Shown piece by piece: positions 28,977 to 31,148 of a stretch of 64,000 nucleotides of DNA; position 1 is the stretch's first letter; each line of letters begins with the position of its first letter. The translations under genes were made by a program, and so were the position numbers. A model generated the notes under the pieces. That model did not search any database. It was not told where the DNA came from and saw only the letters and a program-made list of their open reading frames with translations. This stretch comes from Candidatus Omnitrophota bacterium (GTDB taxonomy: Bacteria > Omnitrophota > Gorgyraeia > Zapsychrales > Zapsychraceae): NCBI GenBank assembly GCA_015233405.1, contig JADFXT010000004.1, positions 36,470-100,469 of the forward strand, written 5' to 3'.

Positions 28977-30149
28977 CTATTTAGGGTCTTGGTAGGTATA
29001 ATGCTTACCGGCGTAGTTGCGAAGGGTGTACGTACCATCCTTTTTTTCGACAACGGTCTCAATATTAATGGGCACCTTGCCTCCACCTCCGGGGCAGTCA
29101 ATGACAAAGGTAGGAACCGCATACCCGGACGTAAAGCCATACAGCTTTTCCATAATATTAATGCCAGTCGCCACAGTCGTACGAAAATGCTTAGACCCGG
29201 CAATGGGATCGCACTGATAAATATAATAAGGCCGCACGCGGATTTTTAAAAGCTCATGCATGAGTTTCTTCATCACCGACGGCTTATCGTTAATGCCTTT
29301 TAAAAGGACTGTCTGGCTTCCTAAAGGAATGCCATTATCGGCCAAAAGTTCGCAGGCAAACTTAACGCGCTTAGTGATTTCCTTAGGATGATTAAAATGA
29401 ATGCTCATCCACGGCGAATATTTCTTAAGGAGTTTAACCAAGTCAAAAGTAATTCTCTGAGGAAGCGTCACCGGAATGCGACTGCCGATACGAACGAACT
29501 CGACATGAGAAATGCTTCGCACGCTCTTTAAAATGTATTCCAAATCCTCATCCTGCAAAATGAGCGGATCTCCGCCGGAAATCAGGACATCGCGGATTTT
29601 TTTATTCGAACGGATATAATCAAAGGCGGCCTCATAATTCTCCCGATTAAGTTTTCGGGTCCGTTTTCCGACCATCCGTGAGCGGGTACAGTGACGGCAA
29701 TACATCGCGCACATTTCGCTGACCAAAAATAAAACGCGGTCCGGATAACGATGCACCAGTCCGGGCACCGGAGAACACCGGTCTTCCTCTAAAGGGTCCG
29801 TCATTTCGCCATTAGATGTTTCAAGCTCAAACTTTTGAGGAACACTTTGAAGACGAATAGGACAGGTCGGGTCTTTGGGATCGATTAAGCTTGCAAAATA
29901 CGGTGTGATCGCCATGGAAAGTTTTTTTCCACAACCATCAATGCCCTGCCGTTCATCTTCAGTCAGATCGACGAGCTTTTCAATGATGTCCCTGGTACGA
30001 ATGGTATTTTGGATCTGCCATTGCCAATCTTCCCAGTCAAACGGGGTCGCATCTTTAAAAAAGCTAATCACGCGATTTTCTTCAGCGGTGAGCTTTTTCT
30101 GACCTTGGATTGTTTCGATTGTGCCCATGGCATCCTTTCCTTTTTTCAA
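28977..30149 (-). CDS. kamA: Lysine 2,3-aminomutase family radical-SAM enzyme (KamA/AblA-like)
   Basis: 390 aa. WEDWQWQIQNTIR, CAMYCRHCTR (CxxxCxxC) and GGDPL are typical of the KamA family. It is longer than EpmB-type paralogues. Confidence 0.85.
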   Translation of the reverse strand: MKKGKDAMGTIETIQGQKKLTAEENRVISFFKDATPFDWEDWQWQIQNTIRTRDIIEKLVDLTEDERQGIDGCGKKLSMAITPYFASLIDPKDPTCPIRLQSVPQKFELETSNGEMTDPLEEDRCSPVPGLVHRYPDRVLFLVSEMCAMYCRHCTRSRMVGKRTRKLNRENYEAAFDYIRSNKKIRDVLISGGDPLILQDEDLEYILKSVRSISHVEFVRIGSRIPVTLPQRITFDLVKLLKKYSPWMSIHFNHPKEITKRVKFACELLADNGIPLGSQTVLLKGINDKPSVMKKLMHELLKIRVRPYYIYQCDPIAGSKHFRTTVATGINIMEKLYGFTSGYAVPTFVIDCPGGGGKVPINIETVVEKKDGTYTLRNYAGKHYTYQDPK

Positions 30150-30152
30150 AGG

Positions 30153-31148
30153 TTACGGTTTTAAACCGTATCGTTCTAAGGCAAAATTCAAAATACGATT
30201 GATCGTTTTTGCATAATCCGAACCCAAAACCTGGGGAAAAATATTAAAGGCATCTTGCTCATCCAAAGACGGCAAAGGATTAATTTCGAGGGCATACGGA
30301 TTATCTTTATCATCGACGCGGAAATCCACGCGGCCAAAATCCCGGCATCCGACGATCTTATAAACCCTGATGGCCAGCTCCTGCATCTTTTTAGTTAACT
30401 CAGGAGAAATCTTGGCGGGACAAATATATTGCAAACGGTCTGAGGCGATACGCTCAAAAGTATAGAATTGATTCCCGAGATTGCTATTACCGTCGATGCT
30501 GACCTGAATGATCGGCATAGCCTCCGGCGGATTATTCCCCAAAATAGGAACAGTAAATTCTTTTCCTTTAATAAATTCTTCGACCAACGCGGTTTGATGG
30601 TAAACTTCATTGACAAGTTGCACCTGTCTTTTTAAACCTTCATAATCTTCCACGCGGGATTTTTCCGAAATGCCTTTAGACGAACCTTCATGGCGGGTCT
30701 TGACCATCAACGGAAACCCGATGGTATTAAGCTTCTCTAAATTATCCGTATGATGGGCCACAAAAAAACGCGGGGTTGGAATGCCGTCATAAACAAACAA
30801 TTGTTTAGCAACGACTTTATCGAGCGTAACACCTAACGAAAGAGCGTCAGCGCCGACAAAAGGAATACCCTTCATTTCTAAAAGCACCGGGACCTGAGAC
30901 TCGCGGTTTCTCCCATTTCGGCCTTCACAGATATTAAACACAATATCCACGTCCAGATTATCAAGCCTCTTCATCAAATTATGAACATTGCCGATACGGT
31001 CAACCGTATGCCCACCCGATTCCAAGGCGCGGACAATATTATCTATGGTCTTGGGCTTATCAAATTCCGCACACGTATCTCCGGGATCAGCGGAACCCAA
31101 CGCCCAATCTGTTTTCACATCGTATGTTAATCCTACTTTTTTTCCCAT
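30153..31148 (-). CDS. ATP-grasp ligase of the D-Ala-D-Ala-ligase superfamily, non-canonical subfamily
   Basis: 331 aa. The ATP-grasp core (KQLFVYDGIPTPRF...PLMVKTRHEGSSKGIS...VEEFIKGKEFTVPILG...GRVDFRVD...YALEINPLPSL) is present. The N-terminus (KVGLTYDVKTDW...) lacks the GGxSxEHxVS block of cell-wall Ddl. Only 3 nt separate it from kamA. Confidence 0.8.
   Translation of the reverse strand: MGKKVGLTYDVKTDWALGSADPGDTCAEFDKPKTIDNIVRALESGGHTVDRIGNVHNLMKRLDNLDVDIVFNICEGRNGRNRESQVPVLLEMKGIPFVGADALSLGVTLDKVVAKQLFVYDGIPTPRFFVAHHTDNLEKLNTIGFPLMVKTRHEGSSKGISEKSRVEDYEGLKRQVQLVNEVYHQTALVEEFIKGKEFTVPILGNNPPEAMPIIQVSIDGNSNLGNQFYTFERIASDRLQYICPAKISPELTKKMQELAIRVYKIVGCRDFGRVDFRVDDKDNPYALEINPLPSLDEQDAFNIFPQVLGSDYAKTINRILNFALERYGLKP

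Follow-up and report, generated by a model that had tools for sequence, protein, structure and literature searches.

Within 64,000 nucleotides (nt) of DNA from a Candidatus Omnitrophota bacterium (contig JADFXT010000004.1 of assembly GCA_015233405.1, positions 36,470 to 100,469 of the forward strand; hereafter the window), a ligase of the ATP-grasp superfamily that resembles D-alanine-D-alanine ligase (Ddl) is encoded just ahead of a lysine 2,3-aminomutase of the KamA family. Judging from the two sequences and their conservation, this two-gene operon probably makes beta-lysine and incorporates it into a small product by ATP-dependent amide-bond formation. KamA would convert free L-lysine to beta-lysine by radical S-adenosylmethionine (SAM) and pyridoxal phosphate (PLP) chemistry, and would do so without zinc and a tetramerization tail. 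With ATP, the ligase would turn a carboxylate into an acyl phosphate and then form an amide bond involving beta-lysine. The product may be a small, dipeptide-like amide containing beta-lysine, probably cationic and perhaps a solute or polyamine-like compound. The Omnitrophota pair is the minimal form of a widespread module, to which other lineages add a second ATP-grasp enzyme, a GNAT acetyltransferase and a deacetylase. The enzyme families are known, as is the first step, but the combination with an ATP-grasp ligase appears to be undescribed: full-text literature searches found no description of a KamA-type aminomutase coupled to a Ddl-like ATP-grasp ligase. An earlier note on this DNA, made from the letters alone, had suggested amide-bond formation with beta-lysine, and that reading gains support from a ligase that is not a Ddl, a conserved pairing and an aminomutase that is not of the EpmB type, with the chemistry itself predicted. 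The features at the center of this proposal are as follows.

30153..31148, minus strand: Ddl-like ATP-grasp ligase ("graspA" clade), 331 amino acids (Pfam, NCBIfam, AlphaFold (AF2) model, 49-orthologue alignment)
30129..30152, minus strand: intergenic spacer, 24 nt, with Shine-Dalgarno-like AAAGGAAAGGA (direct sequence reading)
28977..30128, minus strand: KamA-family lysine 2,3-aminomutase, short form without the zinc site, 383 amino acids (TIGR00238, 2A5H match)

Direct reading of the sequence places both open reading frames, with their motifs, where they had first been reported. The 331-residue translation of the ligase begins MGKKVGLTYDVKTDW, and CAMYCRHCTR and WQWQIQN both fall in the KamA frame, 28977-30149. 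The earlier note had given KamA 390 amino acids and a start 3 nt after the ligase, which holds for the earliest possible start, a TTG at 30149, 3 nt beyond the TAA stop of the ligase (30155-30153). An in-frame ATG at 30128, behind AAAGGAAAGGA, gives instead a protein of 383 amino acids and a 24-nt spacer, and we consider it the more likely start because 383 amino acids is the length of each of the two closest KamA orthologues. A coding-strand scan of the spacer between ligase and KamA for promoters and terminators returned no promoter-like or terminator-like site.

The pairing of ligase and KamA is far beyond chance. Among 201 evenly drawn Omnitrophota genomes, 48 encode the ligase in orthologous form, and without exception these 48 also encode KamA on the same contig; where positions were compared, KamA lies beside the ligase, within ~2.5 kb. 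Seventeen further genomes encode a KamA, and in 14 of them a more distant Ddl-like ligase adjoins it, in several cases along with an ATP-grasp B and a GNAT, which brings the KamA-bearing genomes with an adjoining Ddl-like ligase to 62 of 65. The three exceptions (loci L113, L114 and L119; genomes G069, G037 and G196) are other KamA subtypes without an adjoining ATP-grasp gene and may represent further KamA contexts; the L114 gene lies next to one whose product has an N-terminal domain resembling alanine dehydrogenase, and the L119 gene next to one for another radical-SAM protein. The co-occurrence of this ATP-grasp subfamily with kamA, first noticed in a single stretch, is therefore conserved in related genomes. 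All 17 genomes of one Omnitrophota family in the sample have the module and none of the 63 of another does, so that it is specific to lineages rather than part of the universal housekeeping of the phylum.

Gene order and fusions extend this picture. Across 80 related loci, on contigs taken from one genome per species, KamA lies 40-330 nt 3' of the ligase wherever an Omnitrophota locus extends far enough downstream, and a second, paralogous ATP-grasp gene sits between the two in some loci. The order is reversed in Bacteroidota, Lentisphaerota, Pseudomonadota, Bdellovibrionota, Chloroflexota and one Methanomassiliicoccaceae archaeon; outside Omnitrophota it usually runs KamA, a (GNAT-)histone-deacetylase-family protein, ATP-grasp A, ATP-grasp B and GNAT. 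Our tree places the ligase of the window in an Omnitrophota clade of 46 sequences, apart from the ATP-grasp A clade of other phyla, and the ATP-grasp B sequences form separate clades. One open reading frame of 741 amino acids in a Methanomassiliicoccaceae metagenome-assembled genome (MAG) joins KamA to ATP-grasp A, and a 674-residue ATP-grasp A+B protein and ATP-grasp B+GNAT proteins occur elsewhere. At the level of sequence, these fusions confirm that KamA and the ligase form a functional unit.

KamA contains the Pfam domains Radical_SAM and LAM_C and scores 357.6 bits against the KamA family model TIGR00238, above its cut-off of 199.2. Its best equivalog match is TIGR03820 (AblA/lysine 2,3-aminomutase, EC 5.4.3.2), where its 504.8 bits fall just short of the cut-off of 525.4 because the C-terminal tail is missing, the match spanning model positions 5-361 of 417. 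Scores are lower against the models for glutamate 2,3-aminomutase (458, cut-off 650), arginine 2,3-aminomutase (407, cut-off 600) and EpmB (TIGR03821, 245 bits, cut-off 369.3). Lysine 2,3-aminomutase of Clostridium subterminale (PDB 2A5H) aligns to KamA over residues 25-389 with an E value of 3.5e-138. The CxxxCxxC motif is kept, with C147, C151 and C154 at the positions of Cys125, Cys129 and Cys132 of 2A5H, and R156, D314, D351 and K358 align with its Arg134, Asp293, Asp330 and Lys337. We take the three cysteines of 2A5H to be those of the iron-sulfur cluster, Arg134 to bind the carboxylate, Asp293 and Asp330 the epsilon-ammonium and Lys337 the PLP. The equivalents of all these residues are conserved in 57-58 of 58 ligase-linked KamAs from several phyla, which argues for a free, lysine-like substrate and hence for KamA acting before the ligase. 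The carboxylate, alpha-amine and epsilon-ammonium of that substrate would then all be free.

The linked aminomutases also share what they lack. The zinc ligands of the Clostridium enzyme are, we assume, Cys268 and the C-terminal Cys375, Cys377 and Cys380. KamA of the window has Lys289 at the position of Cys268 and ends near residue 369 of 2A5H. Ligands for the zinc site are missing in all 58 ligase-linked KamAs, which have Lys, Asn, Asp or Arg at the Cys268 position. Nearly all of the 58 end like the chain in the window or within a few dozen residues of it, without a cluster equivalent to Cys375, Cys377 and Cys380. On these sequence features we assign KamA to a short, separate subfamily of lysine 2,3-aminomutase, with free L-lysine as its presumed ligand.

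The ligase bears out the ATP-grasp core of the Ddl superfamily that had been assigned to it. Pfam Dala_Dala_lig_C matches at 3e-35, and the AF2 model (predicted local distance difference test, pLDDT, 93.9) has a predicted three-domain fold whose best Foldseek matches in the PDB are all Ddl, at template modeling (TM) scores of 0.77-0.80 and ~24% identity. The best NCBIfam matches are likewise all Ddl/Van models, and all fall below cut-off (NF002378, 181.5 bits against 243; TIGR01205, 159.3 against 245.65). The genome encodes a canonical Ddl on another contig (318.3 bits, motif GGYSSERAIS), and comparison with it confirms that the GGxSxE(H/R)xVS block of cell-wall Ddl is absent from the ligase, which has GLTYDVKTDW...CAEFD there instead; written as a pattern, the motif in place of the block is GxTYDLKxDW...AEFD. 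With scores below the Ddl cut-offs, a clade of its own and a true Ddl elsewhere in the genome, the ligase does not cluster with bona fide Ddl. Two source annotations label members of this clade D-alanine-D-alanine ligase.

An alignment of 49 orthologues, drawn from Omnitrophota and other phyla, contains an invariant ATP-grasp core (K111, K115, K150, E154, G155, K158, E190, R273, D275, E288 and N290) and a set of family-specific invariants (G6, A27, E28, D30, D68, N72, E75, G76, R82 and E83). Among the latter, A27-E28-x-D30 lies four residues ahead of helix 1 and may be the positional counterpart of the Ddl Glu block. In E. coli DdlB, the residues for D-Ala2 are presumably Lys215-Tyr216 of the omega-loop and Ser281, with the Glu of the N-terminal block binding the amino group of D-Ala1. 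Aligned to the genome's own Ddl, the invariant E75 replaces the His of ALHG (Ddl His63), the omega-loop AKY is matched by ERI and TSL is matched by QDA, so that Ser-Leu becomes Asp-Ala. The Lys-Tyr and Ser columns of Ddl are not conserved among the 49 ligases, and Ddl Ser281 is usually replaced by Asp. Added acidic residues of this kind (A27-E28-x-D30, E75 and the Asp for Ser281) would fit cationic substrates. Sequence and structural model together suggest an enzyme that retains Ddl-like acyl-phosphate chemistry in a Ddl fold but is not a Ddl.

The source genome is an Omnitrophota MAG of 2.38 Mb and 84% completeness, and absences from it are provisional. Within it EpmA was not found, the sole match to TIGR00462 being a 494-residue open frame, presumably lysyl-tRNA synthetase, below cut-off; the AblB-type GNAT (TIGR03827) gave no match, and beta-lysine 5,6-aminomutase was not found by a search that was silent in every control genome as well. 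With no fermentation genes nearby, the known partners of KamA do not adjoin it, as the earlier note had said, and EpmA and AblB are missing from the assembled genome as a whole. That note had left open whether KamA might be an EpmB with its partners elsewhere in the genome. Elongation factor P (EF-P) is in fact encoded, with a lysine-type loop, KPGKGAAF, but epmA and ablB were not found and KamA scores far better on the AblA model than on that for EpmB. The deacetylase of the histone deacetylase (HDAC) family and the close second ATP-grasp of the larger module are absent at the locus and were not found in the rest of the genome; no GNAT gene lies next to the pair, and a module-type GNAT elsewhere in the genome was not searched for.

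Polyamine genes are present in the genome (an Orn/DAP-family decarboxylase, two SpeD homologues and a spermidine-synthase-like domain), and we set aside a polyamine-replacement role for the product because these genes are already there. A third Ddl-like ATP-grasp gene, for 339 amino acids, lies on contig 13 at 5709-6629 (1228-2247 of locus L005), between Peptidase_Mx-like and response-regulator genes and with a SPOR-domain gene beyond. As a candidate for the missing second ligase it was rejected, since its only link to the second-ligase clade is a long branch flagged as unreliable; its identity to an Omnitrophota second ligase is 28%.

The pair lies among housekeeping genes, in the order era, a YjeF_N protein, nth, a PRC/MgtE_N/CBS protein, the pair, rpsU, purH, a Mur-ligase-family protein that is probably FolC, and mnmE, and this synteny is common to nearer relatives. 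Twenty-one related Omnitrophota loci share the order ligase-kamA-rpsU-purH, with rpsU 83-770 nt past KamA; a 22nd match is 2.5 kb off, and more distant loci do not have rpsU there. In the window, rpsU has a promoter-like site of its own, TTTACA-16-TATAAT (28939-28912), with 11 of 12 consensus matches, and its place beside KamA is probably synteny only. Upstream of the ligase is a 300-nt gap with the features of an operon leader.

31149..31328, within the 300-nt gap 31149-31448, minus strand: operon leader (promoter/terminator scan)
31328-31300, minus strand: promoter-like TTGAAA-17-TAAAAT (scan)
31253-31224, or GTG-TAG at 31236-31231, minus strand: possible micro-open reading frame (leader reading)
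31205-31186, with a seven-U run at 31185-31179, minus strand: terminator-like hairpin, 31 nt before the ligase start codon
31165-31159, minus strand: Shine-Dalgarno sequence GGGGAGG (leader reading)
28687..28857, minus strand: rpsU (ribosomal protein S21), downstream of KamA (translation)

An Rfam scan of the leader gave chance-level matches only, and the leader of the window is weakly conserved in relatives (best nhmmer E value 9e-5). Leaders upstream of the ligase in relatives (L016, L017, L020-L023, L031, L041, L046, L050, L053 and L054) share an arrangement in which a strong promoter is followed by GGAG, 5-12 nt, AAATTGAA and, immediately ahead of the ligase start, a terminator hairpin with a covarying stem. 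We read GGAG and AAATTGAA as the Shine-Dalgarno sequence and TTG start of a putative micro-open reading frame of 3-28 codons. Every such frame read by eye contains a Lys codon, and its end is often no more than ~10 nt from the 5' arm of the hairpin or inside it. Nine of 49 loci contain the motif, where chance would give 0.008 per 180-nt stretch; in this window it is degenerate. The leader may be a ribosome-dependent attenuator, and it is tempting to speculate that a lysine-consuming operon would in this way sense lysine.

Other genes of the window are of interest in their own right. The 428-residue protein with PRC-barrel, MgtE_N and CBS domains (31449-32735, minus strand) is without the MgtE membrane domain. 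In two relatives (L015 and L031) its gene precedes one for an Nramp transporter, which is missing here, with the 300-nt leader in its place. Farther away are two tandem genes for small PilZ proteins (113 and 119 amino acids) beside one for an 896-residue protein with a GH94-like catalytic domain (20346-23867, minus strand), and a gene for a 619-residue protein with an N-terminal PilZ domain (36612-38471, minus strand). The PilZ and GH94-like genes suggest glycan metabolism linked to cyclic di-GMP.

Several points weigh against a beta-lysine ligation operon. Substrate, product and activity are all drawn from homology and gene linkage, and we likewise infer the order of the steps, the group that is ligated, its co-substrate and the role of the product. 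Many carriers come from groundwater or freshwater, with no obvious call for an osmolyte, and the polyamine genes of the genome mean that a polyamine-replacing compound is not required. The absences on which we draw come from an incomplete MAG, and for the 5,6-aminomutase from a search that also stayed silent in controls. The aspartate pair of KamA fits lysine best, but ornithine or arginine could instead be its substrate. It is nonetheless unlikely that KamA acts on arginine, ornithine or glutamate, which would give the ligase some other beta-amino acid to join. Although KamA is below all three equivalog cut-offs, the lysine model scores best, with a shortfall that the missing C-terminal tail explains; both Asp residues for the epsilon-ammonium are kept, and the alignment to the Clostridium lysine enzyme is nearly full length. 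Ruzicka and Frey are said to have reported in 2007 that Lys and Asn replace these two Asp residues in glutamate 2,3-aminomutase. KamA is also known to start lysine fermentation in clostridia and Porphyromonas, and the window's enzyme could in principle take the first step of lysine degradation beside a ligase that is an unrelated neighbor. The chances of this seem to us minimal, as beta-lysine 5,6-aminomutase was not found, fermentation genes are missing from the neighborhood, and the ligase linkage and fusions are too conserved to be an accident.

Protein modification and cell-envelope synthesis place the ligase, rather than KamA, in another role. Protein-modifying members of the ATP-grasp superfamily are known (RimK, LysX and TTL), and the ligase could attach beta-lysine to the tip lysine of EF-P, taking the place of EpmA, or, much like RimK or LysX, to a carboxylate of a ribosomal protein, for example S21. 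The lysine-type EF-P loop in a genome where EpmA was not found would fit such a function, as would rpsU after KamA in the 21 related loci and the genes for EF-G-like and YchF proteins that follow KamA in some loci. Yet three genomes of the same order without the module also have KPGKG or KPAKG loops; the module thus does not track EF-P type, which weakens the case for EF-P as target. S21 ends in a basic tail and its gene has a strong promoter of its own, the genes that accompany the module in other phyla are those for GNAT and deacetylase and not efp or rpsU, and the nearest structures and families are small-molecule Ddl enzymes rather than RimK or LysX. We therefore hold protein modification to be quite improbable, though if true, a protein beta-lysyl ligase unrelated to EpmA would mean that uncultured phyla modify their translation machinery by a system of a new kind. 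No better are the prospects of a specialized Ddl paralogue whose product, a unit containing beta-lysine, would go into the stem or cross-bridge of peptidoglycan. The Ddl fold and best family match would suit it, and the third Ddl-like gene of the genome does lie near peptidase-like and SPOR-domain genes. However, the residues that bind D-Ala are missing from the ligase (the Glu15 block, Tyr216 and Ser281), the loci examined have no cell-wall genes, such as mur or fem, with the pair, the conserved partners being GNAT and deacetylase, and the fused module also occurs in a Methanomassiliicoccaceae archaeon. Methanomassiliicoccaceae are not known to have murein.

Ligation of beta-lysine into a small product, the function we favor, would broaden what is known of this amino acid. 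To our knowledge its fates are few: it can be acetylated to an osmolyte, attached to EF-P, fermented or built into antibiotics. The recurrence of the pair in several phyla of bacteria, and in at least one archaeal genome, implies a further beta-lysine conjugate, perhaps common in uncultured anaerobes, and the two-gene form of Omnitrophota is the simplest version of the module with which to approach it. Identity of the product would assign a function to both the ligase clade and the short lysine 2,3-aminomutase subfamily.

Three described systems come nearest to the pair: AblA/AblB, EpmB/EpmA and Ddl itself. AblA/AblB, of methanogens and green sulfur bacteria and represented in Bacillus by kamA-yodP, also sets a lysine 2,3-aminomutase beside an amide-forming enzyme that acts on beta-lysine, and the AblA model is the best NCBIfam match of KamA. 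The partner in that system is an acetyl-CoA-dependent GNAT, whereas here it is an ATP-grasp ligase; AblB was not found in the genome, and KamA, unlike AblA, is without the zinc-binding C-terminal tail. The product thus cannot be N-epsilon-acetyl-beta-lysine, which AblA/AblB makes, unless other enzymes act. EpmB/EpmA of E. coli and Salmonella is alike in that a KamA-family aminomutase feeds beta-lysine to an ATP-dependent ligase, but EpmA is a paralogue of class II aminoacyl-tRNA synthetases with a protein as its target; the ligase described here is from another superfamily, and the module is present independently of EF-P loop type.

The likeness to Ddl and VanA (EC 6.3.2.4) lies in the three-domain fold (TM ~0.8), the catalytic residues of ATP-grasp and the Dala_Dala_lig_C domain. 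It does not reach the curated cut-offs, and the ligase differs in the replaced N-terminal block, the lack of the omega-loop Lys-Tyr, the substitutions at Ser281 and His63 and the existence of Ddl as a separate gene. Carnosine synthase, which makes a beta-alanyl dipeptide, and the NAGGN synthase Ngg, which makes a dipeptide osmolyte, offer ATP-grasp precedents for the activation of a beta-amino acid and for a small dipeptide solute, respectively. They use other substrates and no aminomutase, and family searches detected no specific sequence relationship to them. Blasticidin S biosynthesis may pair an arginine 2,3-aminomutase with an ATP-grasp ligase. Ngg combines a GNAT with an ATP-grasp domain, a combination also seen in the enlarged module of other lineages.

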